Shown here: positions 287 through 30,472 of the stretch, in pieces
Layout: each line of letters begins with the position of its first letter
Position numbering within the stretch: position 1 is the stretch's first letter
Source of the DNA: Acetobacteraceae bacterium
GTDB taxonomy: Bacteria; Pseudomonadota; Alphaproteobacteria; Acetobacterales; Acetobacteraceae
Assembly: GCA_035486135.1 (NCBI GenBank)
Contig: DATHNI010000007.1
Span: 1 to 30,928, forward strand
Direction of reading: 5' to 3'
DNA: 30,928 bases
Made by a program: the position numbers and the translations under genes
Notes under the pieces: model-generated
The model's database searches: none
Told to the model about the DNA's origin: nothing
The model's input: the letters and a program-made list of their open reading frames with translations, nothing else

Positions 287-841
287 GTGGACGGCAGCCG
301 CGCCGTCAAGGTGCCGCTGAACCGCAAGAAGCTGGAACCGGTCTCCGCTGATCGGGTGCGGCGGCTGCGCAAGCACCTCGTGGCATCGATGCGCGCGGAG
401 CGGGAGATGAAGCGCCCGGACCGGTCGGCCTCGCCGGTGCGGCCGGAGCCGGAGGGTTTCGCCGGCGAGGTGGCGCGCACCGCCTGCCGGCTGTGCAAGG
501 GCTGGTGCTGCAAGGGCGGCGAGGAACATGCCTATCTCGATGAGCGCGCGATGGCGCGGGTGCGGCGCGCGCGGCCCGAGCTGGATGCGCGCGCCGTGCT
601 GCGGCTTTACAGCGAGCGTGTGCCGCCCGCCGGCTATCGGGAGTCCTGCGTGTTTCATGGGCCGGAGGGCTGCACTTTGCCGCGCGAGCTGCGATCCGAC
701 GTGTGCAACAGCTATTTCTGCAGCGGGCTTGGCCATTTCTTGACCGGCAAGGATGCCGCGGCGAGCGTGGTGGTGATCGCCGGGGACGGCGAGGCATCGC
801 AGGCATCCGAGGTGCTGACTGAGCCCAGGGCAATCGGGTGA
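287..841 (+). CDS. YkgJ-family (UPF0153) cysteine-cluster protein, putative Fe-S/zinc-binding. The start is uncertain; GTG(287) is preferred over ATG(242).
   Basis: CRLCKGWCC (CxxCxxCC) is followed by a [25 protein letters not shown] cluster. High GC3 begins only after ~nt 285, where GGAG lies 5 nt upstream of the GTG. The first 15 codons of the tracked ORF are GC3-poor and overlap the divergent hydrolase start. Confidence 0.55.
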
Positions 842-906
842 AGGAAGCAAGGCCAGGGCTCTGCCCTGGACCCGCCAAGGGCGGAGCCCCTGGCCTTGCT
901 TCCTTC
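840..906. terminator. Large structured stem-loop between the YkgJ-like gene and argG. A 19-bp perfect inverted repeat (GAAGGAAGCAAGGCCAGGG / CCCTGGCCTTGCTTCCTTC) holds nested sub-hairpins in its 29-nt loop.
   Basis: Perfect 19-bp IR read directly from the sequence. It begins at the YkgJ-like stop codon. There is no U-run, so this may be a REP-like structural element rather than a classical intrinsic terminator. Confidence 0.5.
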
Positions 907-997
907 ACTCGATAGCCCCGGACCAGTCCGCCTTGCGTGCCCCCTGCCCCGGCGTTACTCCCACCCCACCATCCAGCCGCCGCGAAAGGTCGCCGTT

Positions 998-4762: not shown

Positions 4763-4823
4763 ATCCAATAGCAAGCGCCCGAAAGACTGACTCTCAATCT
4801 GATCGCACCTACCGCGCCTCGTA

Positions 4824-4911
4824 TCGTGGCCGGCGAAGGCCGGCCACCCACGACTTTCCCTTGTTGCACGCGGCAAAGTCGTGGATGGCCGGCCTTCGCC
4901 GGCCATGACAC
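4824..4911. repeat. MITE-like hairpin element (family 'GTCATGGCCGG..hairpin..CCGGCCATGAC'), copy A. The terminal inverted repeats are ~33 bp, and each arm contains its own GGCCGGC-GAA-GCCGGCC hairpin.
   Basis: Inverted repeats read directly. Related copies occur at 15850-15942 and 22029-22107, plus a short relative at 9103-9143. Confidence 0.75.
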
Positions 4912-4965
4912 GAGGGGCGCATGCCACCTTGGCCGTACGTCAGTGCTTCCGCCGGTTCGTATAAA

Positions 4966-6694: not shown

Positions 6695-6824
6695 CTGTCA
6701 TTGCGAGGCGCAAAGCGCCGAAGCGATCCCCCGCCTGACGAGAGCTCCTCCGCTCGTCAGGCAGGAGATTGCTTCGGGGCGCTTTGCACCTCGCAATGAC
6801 GCTGGAATTCGCGGCATTTCCAGT
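6695..6824. repeat. Family-5 long-hairpin element, copy 1. A ~45-bp-arm palindrome (TGTCATTGCGAGGCGCAAAGCGCCGAAGCGATCCCCCGCCTGACGAG / CTCGTCAGGCAGGAGATTGCTTCGGGGCGCTTTGCACCTCGCAATGACG) is followed by a conserved GAATTCGCGGCATTTCCAGTC tail.
   Basis: Read directly. A second copy at 27231-27347 has the same tail. Confidence 0.75.
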
Positions 6825-9158: not shown

Positions 9159-11246
9159 TCATGCACTCTTGGCCATGATCTCGTCCGCGATGTTCCGCGG
9201 CACCGGATCGTAGTGGTGGAACTGCATGGTGAACGACGCGCGCCCCTTGGTCATGCTGCGAATATCGGAAATATATCCGAACATTTCCTTAAGGGGAACA
9301 TGCGCCCGGACGATCACCGTGGACCCGGAGCTCTCCTGGTTCTGGATCATCCCACGGCGGCGGTTCAGGTCGCCCACCACGTCACCCACGTGATCCTGCG
9401 GCGTGGTCACCTCCACGTCCATGATCGGCTCCAGGATGATCGGGCTGGCCTTCTTCATCCCGTCGCGGAAACACGCCTTGGCGGCGATCTCGAACGCCAG
9501 CGCAGACGAGTCGACGTCGTGGTACTTGCCGTCGATCAGGGTGTATTTGAAGTCCACCGTCGGGAAGCCGGCCAGCACGCCGGTATCCGCCTGGACCCTG
9601 ATCCCCTTCTCCACCGCCGGGATGTACTCCTTCGGCACCGAGCCGCCGATCACCTTGTTCTCGAACACCACGCCGCCGTTCCGCTCCAGCGGCTCGAACA
9701 GGATCTTCACCTCGGCATACTGGCCGGAGCCGCCGGTCTGCTTCTTGTGTGTGTAGGTTTCCGTGTGCGGCTTGGTAATCGTCTCGCGATACGCCACCTG
9801 CGGCGCGCCGATATTCGCATCGACGCCGTACTCACGGCGCAGCCGGTCGATGATGATCTCGAGGTGCAGTTCGCCCATGCCGGACAGGATCGTCTCCCCC
9901 GTCTCCTGGTCGGTGCGCAGCCGCAGCGACGGGTCCTCGCCGGCCAGCTTCTGCAGGCCGAGCGACATCTTCTCCACCGCTTCCTTGGTGCGCGGCTCGA
10001 CCGAGATGTCGATCACCGGCACCGGGAAGGCCATGCGCTCCAGCACCACCGGATCCTGCTGGGACGCCAGCGTGTCGCCCGTGCCGGTGTCCTTCAGACC
10101 GACGAAGGCAGCGATGTCGCCGGCATGCACTTCCTTGATCTCGGCGCGCTTGTCGGCGTGCATCTGGAACATCCGGCCGATGCGCTCGCGATGCTCGCGG
10201 GTGGTGTTCATCACCGTGTCACCCGACTTCAGCGTGCCGGCATAGACGCGCACGAAGGTCAGCGTGCCGTACTTGTCGTTGATGATCTTGAACGCCAGGC
10301 CGGCGAACGGAGCGTCCGGATCGGCCTTGATGCGCCGGCGGTCGGAATGCTCGCCATCCTCCTCGCCTTCCGCCGCGGCGACGCTGATGCCGGGCACGTC
10401 GATCGGCGACGGCAGGTAGTCGATCACCGCATCCAACAGCGGCTGCACGCCTTTGTTCTTGAACGCCGTGCCGCACAGCACCGGGCGGAACGCGCCGGAG
10501 ATCGTGCCGGTCTTGATGCCGCGCCGCAGGGTCTCGGGCTTGACGTCGCCGTGCTCGAAATATTCTTCCATGCCCGCATCGTCGACCGACAGCGCGGTGT
10601 CCAGCAGAAGCTGCCGGTATTCCTTCGCTTGCTCCTCCAGGTCCGCGGGGATGGGCTCGATATGGAAGCTCGCGCCCAGTTCGCTGCCGTCCCAGATCAC
10701 CGCATGCATCTCGATCAGGTCCACCACGCCGATGAACTTGTCCTCGATGCCGATCGGCAGTTGCAGCGGCAACGCAACGATGTCCAGCTTCTCCTTCAAC
10801 GTGCTGAACGCACGGAAGAAGTCCGCGCCGGTGCGGTCCAGCTTGTTGATGAAGATGATGCGCGGCACGTTGTAGCGGTCGGCCAGGCGCCAGTTGGTCT
10901 CCGACTGAGGCTGCACGCCGGCGACGCCCTCGATGATGAAGATCGCGCCGTCCAGCACGCGCAGGCTGCGGTTCACCTCGATGTTGAAATCGATGTGGCC
11001 GGGCGTGTCGATGATGTTGATGCGGTGGTCCTTCCACTCGCACGTCACCGCCGCGGACGTGATCGTGATGCCGCGCTCCCGCTCCTGCTCCATGTAGTCG
11101 GTCGTGGTGTTGCCGTCGTGCACCTCGCCGATCCGGTGGGACATTCCGGTGTAGTACAGAATGCGCTCGGTCGTCGTGGTCTTGCCGGCATCGATGTGCG
11201 CGGTGATGCCAATATTGCGGATTCTGTCGAGCGGCGTCGCGGGCAC
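9159..11246 (-). CDS. fusA: Elongation factor G paralog (EF-G2-like). It stands alone and is not in an str operon.
   Basis: [38 protein letters not shown], the [31 protein letters not shown] block and a full C-terminal domain IV/V. It lacks the EF-G1 insertion after the first G-domain switch (TCEWKDH instead of TAFWSGMAKQYEPH). The start is called at GTG(11246) because of the perfect AGGAGG 6 nt upstream; the tracked ATG at 11402 would add 50 non-homologous residues. Confidence 0.93.
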
Positions 11247-11254
11247 GGTGGAAC

Positions 11255-11260
11255 CTCCTA
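11255..11260 (-). promoter_or_regulatory. Shine-Dalgarno AGGAGG for the EF-G paralog
   Basis: The minus strand reads TTAGGAGGTTCCACCGTG. The GTG then encodes [14 protein letters not shown], aligned with EF-G N-termini. Confidence 0.6.
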
Positions 11261-11556
11261 AAGCAGCACCGGGCGCGTGATCCTGTGCGGATCCCCGGGA
11301 AGCATCCCGGCGCGCCCGTGTCCTGGTCCGGCCGAGATGGTGCCCCGCGAAACTGGCAAGCGGGGGCCCCAACCGGCTATGTCTGGGCGTGAAATGCGGC
11401 AATCAGGCCCGTTTTGCAAGTGCGAAATGGCGCCGCATGGGACACATGCACGCGCCGCCGTGCCTCCGCCGTCCCATCACCCTCCCCTGCGGCGTCCCCT
11501 GCGGCGTTCACTCTTTGTCACTGTCGGACACGCTGACTAGGGCTAGCTTCCGCGCC

Positions 11557-12861
11557 ATGGATCCACGCACCGCACAAGCGCTGATCCGCTTCGGCCTGGG
11601 TCGCCGAGGCGAGGAACCCATCCCGTCCGACCCGGCCGCCTGGTTGAACGACCAGTTGCGCCAGCCCGACCCCACCCGCATCGACCCGCCGCCGAGCACG
11701 GTCCGGGGCCTGGAGGCATTGCGCTTCGACCGCCAAAACAAGCCGCCGCCCGACCAGCGAACGGTGCGTCCGCTGTTCCAGGCAGAGGCCCGCGCCGAGC
11801 TGGAAAACGCCCTGACCACCCCAGCCCCGTTCCGCGAGCGCCTGGTGCGGTTCTGGACCAACCACTTCACCGTCTCGGTGCGCGGTGGCACGGCCGCCGT
11901 GGCCGGCGCGTTCGTGGAGGAGGCGATCCGCCCCAACGTCACCGCCCGCTTCGAGACCATGCTGCTGGCGGTGATGCACCACCCCGCCATGCTGATCTAC
12001 CTGAACAACGCCCAATCGGTCGGACCGGACAGCCTCGCCGGCCAGCGCAGTCATCGCGGCCTGAACGAGAACCTCGCCCGTGAGTGCATGGAGCTGCACA
12101 CGGTCAGCCCGGCCGCCGGTTACACCCAGGCGGACGTGACCAACTTCGCGAAGATCCTGACCGGCTGGTCGATCGACCTGCGCTCGGACCCGCCCGGCTT
12201 CCGCTTCCGCCCCGCGGCGCACGAGCCGGGCGAGCAGGTCGTGATGGGCCGCCGCTTCCCACCCGGCGAGGAGGGGGGCATCGCCGTCCTGCGGTTCCTG
12301 GCCAATCACCCATCCACGCACCACTTCCTGGCCACCAAGCTGGCGCGCCACTTCGTCGCCGACGACCCGCCGCCCGAGGCGGTGCGTCCTATCGAGGCGG
12401 CCTTGCGCGACACGCGCGGGAACCTCGGTGCCGCGGCCGCATCGCTGATCACGCTGGAGGCCGCCTGGCAGCCCGGGGCGAAACTGCGCGACCCGCAGGA
12501 TTACGTCATCGCCTGCATGCGCGCGCTGGACCTGCCGCCGGAGCAACGGGCCGGCATGAACCTGCCCGGGATCGTCGGCAGCCTCGGCCAGCCGTTCTGG
12601 AACGCACCACAGCCCAATGGCTGGCCGGACCGCGCCAGCGACTGGGCCGCGCCCGAGGCCATGATGCGCCGCATCGACTGGGCGTATGGCGTATCCGGCC
12701 GCGTGGCGGGGCCGCAAAACGGGCGCGATGCCGCGGAACTCGCCGAGGCGACGCTCGGGCCGCTGCTATCCGCCGACACCTTGCAGGCGGTGCACCGCGC
12801 CGGCTCCCGCCGCGACGCCATGACCCTGCTGCTGACCGCTCCCGAATTCCAGAGGCGCTGA
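11557..12861 (+). CDS. DUF1800-family protein
   Basis: MDPRTAQALIRFGLG...FWTNHFTVS...MLIYLNNAQS...NENLARECMELHTVS is the typical DUF1800 architecture, and the gene sits immediately upstream of a DUF1501 gene, the classic conserved pair. The upstream part of the tracked ORF (from 11389) is non-homologous and GC3-poor. Confidence 0.8.
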   Translation: MDPRTAQALIRFGLGRRGEEPIPSDPAAWLNDQLRQPDPTRIDPPPSTVRGLEALRFDRQNKPPPDQRTVRPLFQAEARAELENALTTPAPFRERLVRFWTNHFTVSVRGGTAAVAGAFVEEAIRPNVTARFETMLLAVMHHPAMLIYLNNAQSVGPDSLAGQRSHRGLNENLARECMELHTVSPAAGYTQADVTNFAKILTGWSIDLRSDPPGFRFRPAAHEPGEQVVMGRRFPPGEEGGIAVLRFLANHPSTHHFLATKLARHFVADDPPPEAVRPIEAALRDTRGNLGAAAASLITLEAAWQPGAKLRDPQDYVIACMRALDLPPEQRAGMNLPGIVGSLGQPFWNAPQPNGWPDRASDWAAPEAMMRRIDWAYGVSGRVAGPQNGRDAAELAEATLGPLLSADTLQAVHRAGSRRDAMTLLLTAPEFQRR

Positions 12862-12863
12862 GC

Positions 12864-14207
12864 ATGAAGACCGTTCCCAGCGGCACGACAAACCAAAGAA
12901 TACCCCCCCTCCCCTTGAGGGAGGGGGCTGGGGGGAGGGATTGCGTGCGGCACGAACCCCTCCCCCCAGCCCCCTCCCTCAAGGGGAGGGGGAGTCTCTT
13001 GGCGCTTGGCCCAATCCTCACCCGCCGGTCCGCCCTCCTTGGGCTGACCGCCGCCTTCACGCTGGGCCGCGCCTCGCTGGCTGTTGCCGCGGCGCCGGGG
13101 GATAAGCGCCTGGTCGTGGTGATCCTGCGCGGCGCGCTGGACGGCATGGCGGCGGTAGTGCCGTACGGCGATCCGGGGCTGACGCCCCTGCGCGGCGAGT
13201 TGGTGCCGGCCGGCCCCGGCCAGGCGAACGGCTTGCTCGATCTCGGCGGGTTCTACGGCCTGCACCCGTCGCTGGCGAACCTCCACACCATGTTCAAGGC
13301 CGGCGAGCTGTTGCCGGTGCACGCCGTCGTCGGCCCGACCCGGGTGCGCAGCCATTTCGAGGCGCAGGACTGCCTGGAGAGCGGCGCCGACCACCGCATG
13401 ACCAGTGGCTGGCTGAACCGCGCCGTCGCCGCGCTGCCCAACGCCGCGCATGACCGGCCGGAGGGCGACGCCCTGGCGATCGGCGTCTCCGTGCCGCTGC
13501 TGCTGCGCGGACCGGCGACAGTAGGAAGCTGGGCGCCGCACGGCGTCATGGCGCCCCCGGCCGATCTCTATACGCAGATCGCCGCGCTGAGCAGCACCGA
13601 CCGGATCATCGGCCCGGCGGTCGCCGAGGGCCTGCAGGAGCGCGGCTTCACCGCCACCGTGATCGCTACCGACGACGATCCGGCACAGCCAGCCAAGGAC
13701 CGCTACGCCTTCCCGGCGCTGGCGCGGGCCGCCGGCGAGATGCTGCGCGCACCGGACGGGCCGCGCGTCGCGGCACTGGAGATCGGCGGCTGGGACACCC
13801 ACCAGGCGCAGGTGCCCCGGCTGGGCGGTGTGCTGAAACAGCTCGACGCCGGCTTGGCGGGCCTGAAGGACGGCCTGGGCCCGGCGTGGAGCCAAACCGC
13901 CGTGCTGGTCATGACCGAATTCGGCCGGACGGCCCGGGTGAACGGCACCAAGGGCACCGACCACGGTACCGCCACCGTGGCGTTCGTGCTGGGCGGCGCT
14001 GTGTTCGGTGGGCGTGTGGCCGGACAATGGCCCGGCCTGGGCCCGGGCAAGCTATACGAGAACCGCGACCTCGCGCCGACCACCGATCTGCGCTCGGTCG
14101 CCAAAGGATTGCTGGCCGGGCACCTGGGCGTCCCCGGCGGCGCGCTGACCGCCGTGTTCCCCGGCAGCGAAGCAGCGCAACCAACCCGCGGACTGCTCCG
14201 CACGTAG
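12864..14207 (+). CDS. DUF1501-family protein (sulfatase / alkaline-phosphatase-like fold) with a TAT signal. An alternative start at TTG(12999) lies just after the embedded REP-2 element.
   Basis: The TAT-like signal LTRRSALLGLTAAFTLGRASLAVAAA is followed by MTEFGRTARVNGTKGTDHGTATVAFVLGG, typical of DUF1501. ATG(12864) lies 3 nt after the DUF1800 stop, but nt 12903-12994 of that reading frame is a REP-2 palindrome translated as PPLPLREGAGGRDCVRHEPLPPAPSLKGRGS. Confidence 0.75.
   Translation: MKTVPSGTTNQRIPPLPLREGAGGRDCVRHEPLPPAPSLKGRGSLLALGPILTRRSALLGLTAAFTLGRASLAVAAAPGDKRLVVVILRGALDGMAAVVPYGDPGLTPLRGELVPAGPGQANGLLDLGGFYGLHPSLANLHTMFKAGELLPVHAVVGPTRVRSHFEAQDCLESGADHRMTSGWLNRAVAALPNAAHDRPEGDALAIGVSVPLLLRGPATVGSWAPHGVMAPPADLYTQIAALSSTDRIIGPAVAEGLQERGFTATVIATDDDPAQPAKDRYAFPALARAAGEMLRAPDGPRVAALEIGGWDTHQAQVPRLGGVLKQLDAGLAGLKDGLGPAWSQTAVLVMTEFGRTARVNGTKGTDHGTATVAFVLGGAVFGGRVAGQWPGLGPGKLYENRDLAPTTDLRSVAKGLLAGHLGVPGGALTAVFPGSEAAQPTRGLLRT
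12903..12994. repeat. REP-2 GC-rich palindromic element, copy A (CCCCCCTCCCCTTGAGGGAGGGGGCTGGGGGGAGGG ... CCCCTCCCCCCAGCCCCCTCCCTCAAGGGGAGGGGGAG). Each arm is itself a hairpin with a CTTGA/TCAAG loop, and it carries canonical G4 motifs on both strands.
   Basis: Read directly: GGGAGGGGGCTGGGGGGAGGG contains four G-tracts with 1-2 nt loops. Copy B is at 27109-27214 and a fragment at ~15303-15318. Confidence 0.85.
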
Positions 14208-14428: not shown

Positions 14429-15192
14429 TCACTGGCCGACGAGTGACAGCGGCAACTCCAGGCTGCCGCGCACGCTGAGCACCGATGCGATCTGCGCGCC
14501 GATGCGTTGGCCGAAGTCCATGAGCTCTTGCATTTGCTCGCCGGCCGGCGGTTGATCCCCGGCGTCCCAGTTCACGAACAAGGCGCCCAGCAGTTTGCCC
14601 TGCACGTCGGTCACCGGGCAGGCCAGCAGGCTGCTGGCGCCCAACAACTGCATGCGGGCCTGTAATTCAAAGTTGTGGACCTCCGGCATCGACGTCGATT
14701 GGCACCGGCCGGCCAACATCGCCGGAAGAAACTCGCTCCAGGTGGACAGCGGCTCGTTGACGACTGTCCCACCCGCGGCGCGGCCGGGCGCCGCAACCGC
14801 GTTGGTGACGTCGTAGCGCAACATGCTGGTGCCGGTGACGCCCGTGATGCCGTTATGGACCACGCCAAGCCGGACACGCGCCGCTCCCATCGAATGCAGC
14901 AGCGCGACCCCGAGCAATTCGTCGATCAGCTTGCCGCTCGTCGCGTACTGGTGCAACTCCGCCTGCATGAGGGCGGCCACGAGTTGCTGTTGCTCGGCCT
15001 CGCGATTCGCCCTGGTGTCGACAAACGCCACCCGCAGGCCCTTGGCCAAACTTCCTTCGTCGCGGATGTGCCAACCCAGGTACAGGCTGCACAGCATGGC
15101 AACGGTCAGCACGGGCTGGATCACCACGTTCACCAAAGGCTCACGCAGATTGCCGAGCATCGAAAGCAACATGTTGAGCAAGCGCAGGGCCT
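14429..15192 (-). CDS. GAF-domain protein with an N-terminal transmembrane helix; codon usage is atypical
   Basis: After the hydrophobic VVIQPVLTVAMLCSLYLGW segment comes a ~150-aa GAF-like region. Start candidates are GTG(15192), with GGAG 8 nt upstream, or ATG(15162). The extension upstream to 15403 is rich in rare codons and is probably non-coding. Confidence 0.55.
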
Positions 15193-15595
15193 CGACAATC
15201 ACAAGTCTTACTCCGTTGATGTGGGCCAGTGGGATCGGACAAAGGCGGTCTGACGCATGCCCGGCGAGCGCGGGCCAGCGAGTCAGTTGCTGCTTGGTAA
15301 ATCCGGGTCTCCCCTTGAGGGAGCCACACGTCCTTGTTCGCGGCGACGTCTGCCGTTTCAGCCCGAGCGTGTTGGTCGCCGCCCGATGGTCAGCGCGCCA
15401 CAATGCCGAGGCAGCGCCAGACGTCAGGACGCTTGGCGGCGTGTGAGGCTGTTCTCCCGCCCGGATGCGCGGCGTGAGCCAGGAATGGCGCAGCGACTGA
15501 ACTCTCTGGCGACAGCAACTACTGGGCGCAATACCGCCGTTGACAGCCGCGGTCTAGTCAGTCCTAGGATTATTGTCAAGACAAATCGTATATAT

Positions 15596-15609: not shown

Positions 15610-15849
15610 TATAGCCCTGCGGAGCGCGAAGCAACCGGCTGGATTGATCGCTGTCCGTATCGGAAACGCGTTCTTCCCGCAACCATTGCAGCCAGGCCAA
15701 TTCGTGCCGCTCGCGACAAGCGCGAAACGGCGTGTGAGGGTGCCTCCAGCCGGAGCGAAGCGAAGCCTGGTTGTCCATACCACGCCGAAAGTCCGCGTTA
15801 AGGGGCCGGAGGCAGATAACTGCTTCGACCAGCCGCGCCGCAAAGCCCT

Positions 15850-15942
15850 GTGTCATGGCCGGGCTTGGCCCAAGTACCCACGTCTTCTATTGCCGCCAGC
15901 AGCGAAGTCGTGGGTGGCCGGGCCAAGCCCGGCCATGACACA
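15850..15942. repeat. MITE-like hairpin element, copy B (TGTGTCATGGCCGGGCTTGGCCC ... GGCCGGGCCAAGCCCGGCCATGACACA)
   Basis: The terminal inverted repeats are related to copy A (4824-4911) and copy C (22029-22107). Confidence 0.75.
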
Positions 15943-16180
15943 GGGAGCTTTGACCCGCCCCAATTGACTCGATTGTTCCCGAATGGACCCTGATGCGTGC
16001 CGGCCCGATCACCCTCACCCGCCACTTCGTGGCGCGTCGATCCACTTCGCGGCTCAACCACGTCCAAGGCGGAAGAGGTTTCCTTGGGCAGACGGTGAAA
16101 AATTAGGCTCTGGACGCGCCCAATGCAGGCAAACCACAAACATTCTTGCTGCGTTGCACAAACGGTAGCAGGATCACCCT

Positions 16181-21968: not shown

Positions 21969-22028
21969 GGCGATTTATACCAACAGTCCGACAGACAGCC
22001 TCTCGAACTGTCGCACCAGCCGCCGCAA

Positions 22029-22107
22029 TCGTCATGGCCGGGCTTGACCCGGCCATCTATCGCGGCACCAGCGCTGCATAGACAGCAGGGTCAGGCCGGC
22101 CATGACC
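22029..22107. repeat. MITE-like hairpin element, copy C (CGTCATGGCCGGGCTTGACCCGGCCATC ... CAGGGTCAGGCCGGCCATGACCG)
   Basis: Read directly. It lies between the convergent CmcJ-like and vapC genes. Confidence 0.7.
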
Positions 22108-22138
22108 GTGGGAGCGGGCGCTGCCGGTACGGGAAACT

Positions 22139-27108: not shown

Positions 27109-27214
27109 CTCCCCCTCCCCTTGAGGGAGGGGGTTGGGGGAGGGGTGCGAACCGCAACGGCCGGCGGCTGTACGAACCCCTCCCCCCAACCCCCTCCCTC
27201 AAGGGGAGGGGGAG
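27109..27214. repeat. REP-2 GC-rich palindromic / G4-motif element, copy B
   Basis: CTCCCCCTCCCCTTGAGGGAGGGGGTTGGGGGAGGGG ... ACCCCTCCCCCCAACCCCCTCCCTCAAGGGGAGGGGGAG is about 90% identical to copy A in its arms. Confidence 0.85.
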
Positions 27215-27230: not shown

Positions 27231-27347
27231 AGGCGCGCTGCGCCGAGGCGATCCCCCGCCGGACCAGCCGAGGAACGTTCGTCAGACGGGGGATTGCTTC
27301 GGCGCAGCGCGCCTCGCAATGACAGTAGCATTCGCGGCATTTCCAGT
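27231..27347. repeat. Family-5 long-hairpin element, copy 2 (left arm truncated), with the conserved CATTCGCGGCATTTCCAGTC tail
   Basis: AGGCGCGCTGCGCCGAGGCGATCCCCCG ... CGGGGGATTGCTTCGGCGCAGCGCGCCTCGCAATGACA palindrome. The tail matches that at 6800-6824. Confidence 0.7.
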
Positions 27348-27361
27348 CGGGGCAAAACCGC

Positions 27362-28594
27362 TCAATGCGCGGCCGGAGCAGTGGGCGCGGCCGCGCCCGA
27401 CCGCAGCAGCGTGCCGAGCAAGCCGCCGAGATCGGGCGGCAGGCCGACGATCGTGGAGGGAAGCCGCCCGTCGCTCTTGTGGCCGAACGAACGCAGCGCG
27501 TCCGCCGCGGCCAGCGCCTGGATGGTCGAGGCATACGGCGCCAGCTCTGCCGCGATCGCCTGGTCCTGCGAGGCGATGTAGCGCCGGTTGACCGCATCCT
27601 GCACCACCGGGTCGAAGGTGAACGTGTCGGCCCAGCCGATGAAATCCAGCGTGATGCCGACCGAGGCGAAGTAGTCGGCCGCCGCCTTGCCGACCGCATC
27701 CATGATCTGGTTCGCTTCCTCGTTCGCCTTGTCGAAGCTGCGGCTGGCGATTTCGTTGCACACCAGCGTCTGGACCTTCTTGCGTCCGACGTCGTCCATC
27801 ACATCGGACAGCTTGCGGCTGAAGAACACCGAGTTGAAAATGACCTTCGGATCGGTGCGGTCGCCAACCGGCGGCAGCACGCCGAACCGGTAGAGGTATT
27901 TCGCCGCGTTCGGTTCCAGCACCGAAGCGCCGATCGACACGCCGACGGATATGTTGAGCCCCTCCTTGCTCTGGCAGGGAAACGATTCGTTGCGGGTGGA
28001 CGTGCCGCGCTCGCGCGCTTCCACCCATTCACGGCTGAACGGCGTGCGATCGACGATGATCAGCCGGCCCGCCGGAACATAGAAGTCGAAAAAGCTGCCG
28101 GAGCCTTGCAGCTTGGTGTGGGGAACGATGAAGCGCTTCACCGCGATCTTGTTGGCTTGCAGGTACGCCTCGGAATCGAATTGCGCCTGGTTGTCCTTGT
28201 TGGCGCCGGCGTCCGGAATCCAGAACGCGGATTCGTTCGGCAGGATGGTGTAGGCCTCGGTGTAGTCGGTCTTGTCGTAGTAGGCCTGGGCCTGCGGCGC
28301 GGCCAGCAGCACGCCAAACACGATTGCCGCGGCGCCCGAAACCCACCACTGCCGCAGGGGCCGCCACCAGATCGCCACGACGACGGCCAGCAGGACCACG
28401 GCCGGGATGCCGAGATTGCCGAACAGCCGGATGCCGATCATCGAGGTGACGTAGGACGCGTCGGTATTGGCGAATTGCTGGCCGGCCACGTCAGCGGACG
28501 CAATCGTCGCAACCGGATGCAGCAGGAAGTTGATCCAGCCATACAGCACCACGGCGGCGGCTGTGGCGATGGCACGGCCCAGGATACGGTTCAC
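27362..28594 (-). CDS. Membrane protein with three N-terminal TM helices and a possible SPFH/band-7-like domain
   Basis: The N-terminal hydrophobic segments are followed by a ~250-aa domain with weak SPFH-like periodicity (ISVGVSIGASVLEPNAAKYLYRFG ... VQDAVNRRYIASQDQAIAAELAPYA). The family assignment is tentative. Confidence 0.45.
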   Translation of the reverse strand: MNRILGRAIATAAAVVLYGWINFLLHPVATIASADVAGQQFANTDASYVTSMIGIRLFGNLGIPAVVLLAVVVAIWWRPLRQWWVSGAAAIVFGVLLAAPQAQAYYDKTDYTEAYTILPNESAFWIPDAGANKDNQAQFDSEAYLQANKIAVKRFIVPHTKLQGSGSFFDFYVPAGRLIIVDRTPFSREWVEARERGTSTRNESFPCQSKEGLNISVGVSIGASVLEPNAAKYLYRFGVLPPVGDRTDPKVIFNSVFFSRKLSDVMDDVGRKKVQTLVCNEIASRSFDKANEEANQIMDAVGKAAADYFASVGITLDFIGWADTFTFDPVVQDAVNRRYIASQDQAIAAELAPYASTIQALAAADALRSFGHKSDGRLPSTIVGLPPDLGGLLGTLLRSGAAAPTAPAAH

Positions 28595-28719
28595 GTCAGC
28601 CTCCGCGGTGTCGTCCGGCGTCAGGCCGAACCCGGCGTTCCCGATGGCGCCACGCGCCGCCAGGATACGCCGGGAACCTTAACGCATCGTTACACCCTTG
28701 CGAAGTTCGCCGTGCGTGA

Positions 28720-29784
28720 TCAGTTCAGCCGCAGATCGATCAGGTGCTTCGGATCGGGCTTCAGCTCGCCCTTCTCCACCCGCTTGACGATGTCGGTCAG
28801 CGCCGCGTTGGCCGGGGTGGGAATACCGATCTCTTCTCCCTTGCGGACGATCAGCCCGTTGAGGAACTCGATCTCCGTACGCCGGCCTTTCACCATGTCC
28901 TGGCCCATCGACGGCCGGTGTTCTCCGCCGCCGGACTTGCTCACCTCGGCCAGCCGGTGCTCGTCGTATTCGCGCACCGCCGCGGGGTCGCCTTCGCCGG
29001 CCTTGGCGATGATCTCCGGGTCGATGTGGTGGATTTCCTCCAGCTCGTAGCCCAGCGCCTGGCCGACGCGGATCGCCTCGCTGCCCAGCCGCGCGCCGAA
29101 CCGGCGCAGCGCGTCGTTGGTCAGGATATCCTTGCTGATCAGCCCCGTGCTGGCCGACATGCCGTTCGCCATTCCGTTGGTCACCAGCTTGGACCAGCGC
29201 TCGCCCCACAGGTTGGAGGTCGCCAGCGCGGAGTCCGAGTATGCGACCAAGCGGCGGATCTCCTGCACGCGGTCGGTGATGCGGCCGTGCACCTCGCCGG
29301 TGCGGAACACGGTGTGCTTGTCGCCGCTCTTGCCGGCGGCGCGGCGCACATGGCCGGGCTCGCACAGATCGACCGTGATCGAGCTGGCGATGCAGCCGAC
29401 GACGCGGCCCCAGCCGACCACGTCGGCAATGGTCTCCTCGTTCATGCAGTTCTGCAGCGACACCACGAAGCCGTTCGGCGACAGGTATTGCGAGATCAGC
29501 GTCGTCGCCCATTTCGTGTCGTACGACTTCATGCAGACGAAGGCGATGTCGATCGGCTTTTCCTTCGCCAGTTGCTGGGCGTCGGTCACGTGCAGCGCGC
29601 GCACCTTGGCGGTGAATTCCGGCACGTCGCGGATATGCGTGATGCGCAGGCCCTTGGCGCGCATGGTTTCCACATGCTCTGGCCAGGGATCGATGAAGGT
29701 AATGTCCTCGCCCGCTTGCGCCATGTGCGCGCCGGCGTAGCCGCCGACCGCACCGGTGCCCATGACCGCGATCTTGTAGCCCAT
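28720..29784 (-). CDS. panE: 2-dehydropantoate 2-reductase (ketopantoate reductase, ApbA/PanE family)
   Basis: MGYKIAVMGTGAVGGYAGAHMAQAG Rossmann N-terminus, and the layout typical of ApbA_N + ApbA_C. The start is ATG(29784), with GGAGGA 6 nt upstream. The tracked 34-aa N-extension is rejected. Confidence 0.8.
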   Translation of the reverse strand: MGYKIAVMGTGAVGGYAGAHMAQAGEDITFIDPWPEHVETMRAKGLRITHIRDVPEFTAKVRALHVTDAQQLAKEKPIDIAFVCMKSYDTKWATTLISQYLSPNGFVVSLQNCMNEETIADVVGWGRVVGCIASSITVDLCEPGHVRRAAGKSGDKHTVFRTGEVHGRITDRVQEIRRLVAYSDSALATSNLWGERWSKLVTNGMANGMSASTGLISKDILTNDALRRFGARLGSEAIRVGQALGYELEEIHHIDPEIIAKAGEGDPAAVREYDEHRLAEVSKSGGGEHRPSMGQDMVKGRRTEIEFLNGLIVRKGEEIGIPTPANAALTDIVKRVEKGELKPDPKHLIDLRLN

Positions 29785-29902
29785 CTGGTTCCTCCCCTTC
29801 GTCGTCAGGAGGGCCAGTGTCGCCGGATGGGTGGGAAACGCAAGGTGTGGTGGCACACCGGGGGCGCTGGCATGCAAGTCCTGCAAGCCCTATATTCGCC
29901 AC

Positions 29903-30115
29903 ATGAGCGCATCGCACCGCGATCCCCTGCACAGGGCCGAGACCGACGCCGACCGACAAAACCGTCTCGCCCGTGAGGCGGAGATGATCGCCGAAGCACG
30001 CGCACAGGTTGCCCGTGGCGAGGTCGTCGACTTCGAGGATGTCGAAGCCTGGATCGACAGTTGGGATACGCCGCATGAGAAACCGAGGCCACTGCCCCGC
30101 CCGCGATCGAGCTGA
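29903..30115 (+). CDS. parD: ParD-like ribbon-helix-helix antitoxin
   Basis: 70 aa; QNRLAREAEMIAEARAQVARGEVVDFEDVEAWIDSW is a typical ParD/CC2985-type antitoxin C-terminal half. It lies directly upstream of a ParE/RelE toxin gene. Confidence 0.6.
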   Translation: MSASHRDPLHRAETDADRQNRLAREAEMIAEARAQVARGEVVDFEDVEAWIDSWDTPHEKPRPLPRPRSS

Positions 30116-30163
30116 GTCAAGACCGCCTGGAGTCCCCTCCTGGCGGCATGGCCGGGGGACAGG

Positions 30164-30472
30164 GTGGCCAGGAAACTCCTGCTCTCCGACAAAGCAATCG
30201 ATGACCTGAGCGCCGTCCGCGTTTGGTACGGACAGCCAGGCGCCGGACGCGTCGCGAAGCGGCGGGCACAGGCGATCGCCGCTGCCATTCGGCGCCTGCG
30301 GCAGCATCCGTGTCGCTACGCCCGCGGCGATCATCCCGGAACCAGGCAAATGGTGATCGAACGCCACGTGGTGATCTACGAGGTTCACCCCGACACCGGC
30401 CGCGATGCCACGGCGGGTGATGTTCTGGTGTTGCGCGTGTTTGGACCGGGACAGCTACGCGAGGTCCTCTAG
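30164..30472 (+). CDS. parE: ParE/RelE-family toxin
   Basis: LSDKAIDDLSAVRVWYGQPGAG ... RYARGDHPGTRQMVIERHVVIYEVHPDTGRDATAGDVLVLRVFGPGQLREVL resembles the ParE fold pattern (..IxYRV.. ..VxILRVxHgxxdl). It has a GTG start. Confidence 0.75.
   Translation: MARKLLLSDKAIDDLSAVRVWYGQPGAGRVAKRRAQAIAAAIRRLRQHPCRYARGDHPGTRQMVIERHVVIYEVHPDTGRDATAGDVLVLRVFGPGQLREVL

Follow-up and report, generated by a model that had tools for sequence, protein, structure and literature searches.

A REPIN-like palindrome inside the 5' end of a DUF1501 gene, probably translated as an extension of a twin-arginine signal peptide in an Acetobacteraceae genome

In this Acetobacteraceae genome, a palindromic repeat probably landed between the ancestral start codon of a DUF1501 gene (ATG 12864) and the twin-arginine (RR) codons of its signal peptide, where it would be translated and tolerated as an extension of the Tat n-region. 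The repeat was analyzed in a stretch of 30,928 nucleotides (hereafter the window), and the coordinates of the relevant features are collected in Table 1. The initial annotation of this DNA had offered two readings: either the repeat inserted at the 5' end of the gene and was tolerated as an N-terminal extension, or it provided a ribosome-binding site (RBS) for a second start codon, TTG 12999. Its statements on the sequence, which covered the frame, the palindrome, TTG 12999, the preceding GGGAGGGGGAG, and the translations, all held.

Table 1. Features of the DUF1800/DUF1501 junction and of the REP-2 repeat in the window
Feature	Position	Strand	Details
DUF1800 gene	11557..12861	+	Pfam PF08811, E = 2e-112; 434 aa
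Ancestral Shine-Dalgarno AGAGG	12851..12855	+	in the last DUF1800 codons, 8 nt 5' of ATG 12864
DUF1501 gene from the coupled ATG	12864..14207	+	Pfam PF07394, E = 2.3e-35; 447 aa; favoured reading
Net extra sequence, 129 nt (43 codons)	12879..13007 (approximate)	+	repeat plus flanks of 24 and 13 nt; borders inferred
Left arm of REP-2 palindrome	12902..12942	+	own 9-bp hairpin CCCCCTCCC-CTTGA-GGGAGGGGG
Variable spacer (loop) of palindrome	12943..12954	+	length and sequence differ among 8 family copies
Right arm of REP-2 palindrome	12955..12995	+	includes SD-like GGGAGGGGGAG (12984-12994); fully paired in the MFE fold
Alternative in-frame TTG start	12999..13001	+	402-aa product; less likely reading
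Twin-arginine motif T-R-R-S-A	13020..13034	+	RR codons 13023-13028
A-A-A ending the signal peptide	13086..13094	+	predicted cleavage after 13094 (AAA/PGDK), inferred by sequence reading
Second REP-2 copy	27109..27214	.	intergenic; flanked by minus-strand SPFH and AMP-binding genes

The DUF1800 gene likely starts at ATG 11557, within a longest open reading frame (ORF) that begins at 11389, and a DUF1800 product of the same length was also called at the syntenic loci L161 and L163. The C-terminus of the protein reads ..EFQRR, the stop codon TGA occupies 12859-12861, and ATG 12864 follows after two nucleotides (TGAgcATG). From this ATG, the DUF1501 frame is open as far as its stop at 14207, and P0001, a protein 99% identical to the window DUF1501, was called at 447 aa.

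A near-perfect palindrome of 94 nt (12902-12995) begins 41 nt 3' of the DUF1800 stop, and the longest DUF1501 ORF runs through it in frame. Its arms, each of 41 nt, are 95% complementary and stand 12 nt apart. Each arm carries the same small hairpin, and the element thus consists of two hairpin units in inverted orientation, which is the anatomy of a REPIN. In the DUF1501 frame, the repeat encodes the Pro/Gly/Arg-rich residues PPLPLREGAGGRDCVRHEPLPPAPSLKGRGS. The RNA fold of 12850-13030 had an energy of -119.5 kcal/mol (z = -8.4 against dinucleotide shuffles). No intrinsic terminator was found on the plus strand at the palindrome, the only matches being minus-strand matches to the inner hairpin, and a terminator function was rejected because the plus strand has no T-run. 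A search against Rfam 15 at the gathering score returned no matches across the whole window, and a protein search with the 40-aa repeat-encoded peptide returned no candidates.

The palindrome belongs to a dispersed family, termed REP-2. A 33-nt arm sequence matched at four positions in the window, whereas none were expected, indicating a real repeat family; the matches in the second copy lie at 27113-27145 and 27178-27210. Two copies lie in the 31-kb window, and approximately 10 full or half copies were counted in 1.3 Mb of related Acetobacteraceae DNA, where the 21-nt arm core occurred at unrelated positions (twice in L013, once each in L099 and in L105, and as several half copies). The full copies at 27109-27214 and in L013, L099, and L105 all lie outside likely genes, a judgment based on codon-position GC and, in the case of the window copy, also on Pfam. 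Alignment of eight full copies revealed arms conserved from CTCCCCC.. to ..GGGGGAG, spacers of 12 to approximately 50 nt, and unrelated flanks. The consensus fold contained 35 pairs, eight of which showed compensatory double changes. At least six further long palindromes of different families occur within the window, indicating that the genome is rich in such repeats.

To place the repeat relative to the normal start of the gene, we compared 152 loci carrying both genes from genome and metagenome collections. These loci were scanned at the DNA level with the mature DUF1501 protein as the query, and the sample is thus free of gene-calling bias. In the ordinary layout, DUF1800 ends in ..EFQRR and its stop, the DUF1501 ATG lies 0-4 nt further on or overlaps the stop (ATGA), and RR follows after approximately six codons. 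Between the DUF1800 stop and the Leu codon that precedes T-R-R, approximately 140 of the 152 loci had 2-43 nt, and the window ATG occupies the same place with respect to the DUF1800 stop as its counterpart in approximately 140 orthologues. The penultimate Arg codon of DUF1800 was AGG in 114 of the 152 loci; the window gene has no other AGG among its 44 Arg codons. This rare codon creates a GAGG 5-10 nt ahead of the ATG in most loci. A Shine-Dalgarno (SD) sequence derived from AGG within DUF1800, together with the adjacent ATG, indicates that the pair is translationally coupled, and the description of DUF1800 and DUF1501 as a tightly coupled pair was confirmed at the orthologous junctions.

The window retains CAGAGGCGCTGAgcATG unchanged, and both the ancestral SD and ATG 12864 are therefore intact. 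The closest empty junctions, those of L002 and L085 (89% protein identity), read TGAtcATGGTTACGCTGACCGGAGTAACG directly followed by CTGACCCGCCGC, which gives MVTLTGVTLTRR, whereas the window junction reads MKTVPSGTTNQRI, the repeat, and then SLLALGPILTRR. The first codons of the window gene, MKTVPSGT, resemble MKTLTGVTLTRR of P0007 as well as the start of L002. This comparison with L002, L085, and P0007 identifies ATG 12864 as the ancestral start and places the repeat downstream of it, inside the ORF. The gap between the stop and the L codon is 155 nt in the window versus 26 nt in L002, and the alignment agrees with this difference. An ancestral ATG directly before PILTRR, as in P0018 and P0031 (MPILTRR) and now GGC in the window, was also considered; it was rejected because three substitutions would be needed and because the window subclade reads M-x-T-L-T-G-V-T-LTRR with an ATG adjoining the stop. 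The initial annotation had named such a start position in repeat-free orthologues as a refuting outcome. These orthologues start at the equivalent of 12864 and reach RR after approximately six codons, which weakens the reading in which the repeat supplies the start, and the orthologue layout supports the reading of a tolerated N-terminal extension.

Repeats also occupy this junction in several relatives. L081 (99%) carries the window allele, from which its repeat differs by a few substitutions, and its contig begins at the DUF1800 stop. L084, L124, and L001 (approximately 90%) have the same element and flanks, with a gap of 206 nt and no ATG, GTG, or TTG between the repeat and RR. A decayed copy, the arms of which are no longer complementary, lies in frame in L161 (= P0002), with no downstream start. 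In L083, only the right arm is present; the first ATG is out of frame, the third ATG, 10 nt further, is in frame, and GTGGTG stands directly before LTRR. Another repeat family (..AGEGPPSTT..VDAGLRRHD..) is found in L067, L162, and L163, and a third (..WPAKEGHP..TWVAG..) in L082, in each case in frame from the stop-proximal ATG; relatives of these second and third families lie in the window at 4813-4919 and 15846-15945. Outside the subclade, an in-frame, half REP-2-like insert without a start codon after it is found in L011, and in L051 an AT-rich palindrome continues the frame of the stop-proximal ATG. In L046 and L145, an AT-rich palindrome of the L051 type separates the stop from an ATG that has been retained beside RR; both cases are true intergenic insertions, and the coupling is broken.

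Because no start codon lies between the repeat and RR in L084/L124, L161, and L011, the extended precursor must be the product at these loci. Within the element and in its surroundings, three distinct indels (3, 15, and 33 nt) distinguish the window from L084. On a conservative count, five to eight independent insertion or indel events were all multiples of three, for which the chance is (1/3)^5 to (1/3)^8, with the independence of the events only partly resolved by a rough NJ tree without bootstrap. A frameshift in its MAG probably accounts for the absence of L067 from the protein tree, and L161-L163 were found through gene-called proteins and are thus biased towards open frames. The dN/dS of the mature part of DUF1501 was 0.12-0.16 in repeat-bearing and empty lineages alike; this purifying selection indicates that the gene is functional in all these lineages. 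The stretch from the stop-proximal ATG to RR thus appears to behave as coding sequence. The repeat is most likely translated, as suggested by the frame kept through indels, by the relatives without a downstream start, and by the dN/dS values, all of which are readings of sequence comparisons. Against read-through, a 41-bp G/C stem should slow ribosomes.

The main alternative places initiation at TTG 12999, with the G-rich right arm (GGAGG/GGGAG, 4-9 nt upstream) as its SD. ATG 12864 would then open a mere leader, and the repeat would effectively be a 5'-untranslated spacer. The SD-like run and its spacing are as initially described, with GGGAGGGGGAG ahead of the TTG and ALGPILTRRSALLGL.... behind it, and the product, (M)ALGPILTRR.., would have a normal n-region of seven residues, similar to that of the orthologues beginning MPILTRR.. 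However, this SD is fully paired in the 41-bp stem (approximately -100 kcal/mol), and TTG is a weak start codon. TTG 12999 is kept in the 99% relative L081, but it falls outside the element, and L084/L124 and L161, with the same insertion and no other downstream start, lack it. The possibility that the TTG is part of the element was raised by the second copy, which also has GGGGGAGnnnCTTG, and was rejected because the flanks past GGGGGAG are unconserved among the eight copies.

Other members of the family lend the alternative some weight. L046 and L145 reveal that uncoupled starts exist in the family, and in L083 the half-repeat places GGGGAG ahead of the GTGGTG next to RR while the first ATG is out of frame; this GTG is a plausible start, and REP-derived SDs may serve some lineages. 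Most intragenic REPs reported at N-termini are probably mis-annotated starts, and such cases are often annotation artefacts (PMC3733652). For the window locus, the comparative data argue the opposite: the ancestral SD and ATG are fully conserved, and a frame kept through several indels would be unexplained if the stretch were untranslated. We therefore regard initiation at TTG 12999 as unlikely, and TTG 12999 with its REP-derived SD is possible at most as a minor or back-up start. The initial proposal of a REP-provided RBS is accordingly weakened by the intact ancestral SD and ATG, by the sequestration of the REP-derived SD in the stem, by the position of the TTG outside the conserved element, and by the relatives in which the same element is followed by no start codon. 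The broader assertion of a repeat-modulated translation start was not substantiated.

The signal that the repeat would extend is well conserved as a motif. RR was invariant in all 152 loci, and the TatP regular expression RR.[FGAVML][LITMVF] (PMC1182353) matched in 133 of them, the window included. In the window, the signal reads TRRSALLGLTAAFTLGRASLAVAAA before the P at the cleavage site, with an (S/T)RRxFLK-like motif ahead of a mildly hydrophobic h-region and an AxA site. Neither Pfam TAT_signal nor NCBIfam TIGR01409 matched either candidate N-terminus at E <= 10; short-motif TAT models are insensitive, and the missing matches carry little weight. The "clean TAT signal" of the initial annotation thus stands as regards the motif but not as regards matches to TAT models, and because these are lacking the Tat call rests on the motif and its conservation. 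Across the family, the median number of residues before RR was 6, with 4-21 in ordinary orthologues and a 95th percentile of 21. Counted from ATG 12864, the window protein has 53 residues before RR, far beyond the usual range of the family. Tat signal peptides usually carry their extra length in the n-region (PMC1182353).

According to the favoured reading, initiation would still take place at ATG 12864 through coupling to the DUF1800 stop, and ribosomes would unwind the palindrome and read through it, since the net extra sequence amounts to 43 open codons. The predicted precursor would have a 77-residue Tat signal peptide with an n-region of 53 residues instead of approximately six. The extended precursor would then be exported by the Tat pathway, and the signal peptide would presumably be cut at the predicted AAA/P site. 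Tolerance of the repeat would follow from the lack of constraint on the n-region and from cleavage of the entire signal peptide, and residues encoded by the repeat would never enter the mature protein.

We also considered whether the repeat is kept because its RNA hairpin serves the operon, by protecting the DUF1800 transcript from 3' exonucleases or by throttling the ribosomes that enter DUF1501 and thereby setting the protein ratio; translation through or past the repeat would then be secondary. REP/BIME elements at operon junctions in Escherichia coli, such as malE-malF, stabilise the upstream mRNA and can lower translation, and the window has a very stable stem at a comparable place, starting 41 nt after the DUF1800 stop. 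The arms of the window and L084 differ by approximately 5%, against a dS of 0.45 at synonymous sites of the gene, and a compensatory C-G to T-A change separates the two. Nevertheless, arm conservation and compensatory changes are traits of the whole family, intergenic copies included, and the conservation is equally explained by recent copying or gene conversion. Decay of the palindrome in L161 and its halving in L083 left no trace of relaxed selection on the gene, no hairpin at all is present in L002 and L085, the closest relatives, or in approximately 140 other orthologues, and the missing T-run leaves the plus strand without an intrinsic terminator. Some palindromic repeat occupies the junction in most clade members, whereas the flanking intergenic DNA of the same loci has few long inverted repeats; this stringent inverted-repeat scan missed decayed inserts of families B and C and addresses enrichment at the junction over neighbouring intergenic DNA only weakly. 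A role of the hairpin as the reason for its retention is, in our judgment, quite improbable.

The relatives raise a further possibility. Different repeat families occupy the same site of approximately 25 nt in sister lineages, in frame in every case; within one Acetobacteraceae subclade, these are REP-2, the 'AGEGPPSTT..VDAGLRRHD' family, and the 'WPAKEGHP..TWVAG' family. Beyond the subclade, a related half-element is present in L011 and an AT-rich palindrome in a more distant clade. We tentatively propose, as a doubtful but conceivable interpretation, that the stop/start junction is a genuine recurrent landing or turnover site, at which at least three unrelated families became fixed within approximately 25 nt, in frame. 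If so, the cleaved n-region of a Tat signal would be a "safe harbour" repeatedly colonised by selfish palindromes. Possible causes include insertion targeted to pre-existing hairpins or to the vicinity of stop codons, and possibly selection for a hairpin that tunes the DUF1800:DUF1501 ratio; the recurrent occupancy may have arisen through targeting, through turnover at the site of an old insertion, or through simple tolerance.

These findings bear on a common annotation question, namely which start codon is used and whether the repeat is coding, which was addressed here by comparison rather than by the default assumption of a mis-annotated start. The locus offers a natural example of a selfish palindrome surviving inside a gene; the compact coupled operon has no space between its genes, and the unconstrained n-region of the cleaved signal peptide would be the only permissive place. 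If the occupancy reflects targeting or selection, the junction would be a tractable system for the site choice of REP-like elements and for the effects of strong 5' coding hairpins on coupled translation and Tat export.

The window locus can be compared with several known systems. Palindromic elements lying in frame in real genes are already known from Rickettsia RPEs, intragenic ERIC, and GTAG/CGTC REPs (PMC10969869, PMC3733652). Like these, the window repeat is a short palindrome of a kind found both between genes and in frame within them, and it would add residues at a permissive position while the host gene remains functional; as in RPEs, it lies between the ancestral ATG and the stop of a conserved gene, in frame and free of stop codons. 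Unlike Rickettsia RPEs, the window element is G/C-rich, 92-94 bp long, and REPIN-like, and its host belongs to a free-living Acetobacteraceae lineage rather than having an AT-rich obligate intracellular genome. The insertion also differs from RPEs in falling in the cleaved n-region of a Tat signal rather than in the mature protein, so that its residues are probably discarded, and in that several repeat families share the same site of approximately 25 nt in sister lineages.

REP/REPIN elements mobilised by RAYT transposases (PMC3116915, PMC3337134) provide a close structural parallel: two inverted hairpin units with a variable spacer, compensatory changes, and several families per genome. Their many copies are dispersed and mostly extragenic, as the REP-2 copies may also be. 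The eight REP-2 copies exhibit this hairpin doublet, with inverted arms and spacers of 12-50 nt. A GTAG/CGTC end tag (PMC3733652) was not found in the alignment of these copies, which end in CTCCCCC... and ...GGGGGAG, and we term the window element REPIN-like rather than a proven member of the REPINs. The window copy at 12902-12995 is also intragenic, unlike typical REP/REPIN copies.

As regards the signal, the window protein shares T-R-R-S-A-L, a mildly hydrophobic h-region, and A-x-A with other Tat signals that have long n-regions, but it differs from them in its 53 residues before RR, against the family median of 6, and in that the extension derives from selfish DNA. Similar to the E. coli REP/BIME elements at operon junctions, the palindrome is stable and sits just past the upstream stop codon; in contrast to them, there is no spacer between the window genes, and the palindrome lies inside the downstream ORF. 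In-frame palindromic repeats inside genes being known already, the notable part of this locus is the recurrent occupancy of the same site.

The rare codon AGG is the penultimate Arg codon of DUF1800 in 114 of the 152 orthologous loci compared, which comprise the window and the corresponding position in L002-L160. The window DUF1800 contains 44 Arg codons, and this penultimate one is its sole AGG. The AGG codon in the DUF1800 coding sequence forms a conserved Shine-Dalgarno sequence that serves the downstream gene.

The arms of the orthologous REP-2 repeats in the window and in L084, a relative of approximately 90% carrying the same insertion, differ by approximately 5%, and the synonymous sites of the adjacent gene have a dS of 0.45. 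One of the arm differences is a compensatory change from a C-G to a T-A pair that also matches the second REP-2 copy of the window. Arm conservation and the compensatory pair suggest that the repeat copies undergo gene conversion or that the stem is under selection. When read on the minus strand, the left arm's inner hairpin together with the TATTCTTTGG that follows it scores as terminator-like; no gene of that strand was found to end at this position.

In L001, the contig end of a metagenome-assembled genome (MAG) is a garbled G/C run lying exactly within the junction REP-2 copy. The REP-2 repeat breaks short-read assemblies, and repeat-bearing junctions are therefore probably under-represented or truncated in MAGs.

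The synteny of the EF-G paralogue and DUF1800 was conserved in the window, L161 (decayed REP-2 copy), L163 (another repeat family) and L013; the L013 paralogue has REP-2 copies on either side.

The signal-peptide stretch seems prone to duplication in its twin-arginine (RR) and n-region parts. In L086, and likewise in L037 and L125, it is the twin-arginine segment that carries a short duplication (MMRFTRRSAPLALTRRSALL; MMDTVSRRVSPWVSRRATLL), giving two RR motifs per signal peptide. The n-region of L002 contains two direct copies of the 9-nt ACGCTGACC, whose starts lie 15 nt apart.

At least six additional long palindromic repeats of families other than REP-2 were found in the window, two of which are similar to the DUF1501-junction inserts of L067/L162/L163 and L082. 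The same DUF1800/DUF1501 junction carries an AT-rich palindrome (..AAAGTTCTTT..AAGAAAGAAG..) in a clade that is more distant and whose genes are G/C-rich; this palindrome lies in frame 3' of the ATG in L051, and between the DUF1800 stop and a start retained beside the RR motif in L046 and L145.

Coordinates of the features in the window and at orthologous loci
Feature	Position	Strand	Remark
EF-G paralogue	window 9159-11402	minus	GTP_EFTU, EFG_III/IV/C domains; divergent, upstream of DUF1800
Long ORF	window 14429-15403	minus	no Pfam match; directly downstream of DUF1501
Long ORF	window 27365-29050	plus	no Pfam match
Long ORF	window 28679-30388	minus	no Pfam match
DUF1800 tail with AGG	window 12848-12861		
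REP-2 arms	window 12902-12995; L084 2838-2946		
Terminator-like signal	window 12903-12927	minus	
Garbled contig end	L001 1-215		
Other-family palindromes	window 825-921, 2277-2342, 4813-4919, 15846-15945, 22013-22124		
Other-family palindromes	window 6697-6800, 27231-27314		same family; the latter adjoins the second REP-2 copy
AT-rich junction palindrome	L046 1604-1678; L051 5943-6000; L145 2812-3003		
RR-segment duplication	L086 2963-3000; L037 2567-2598
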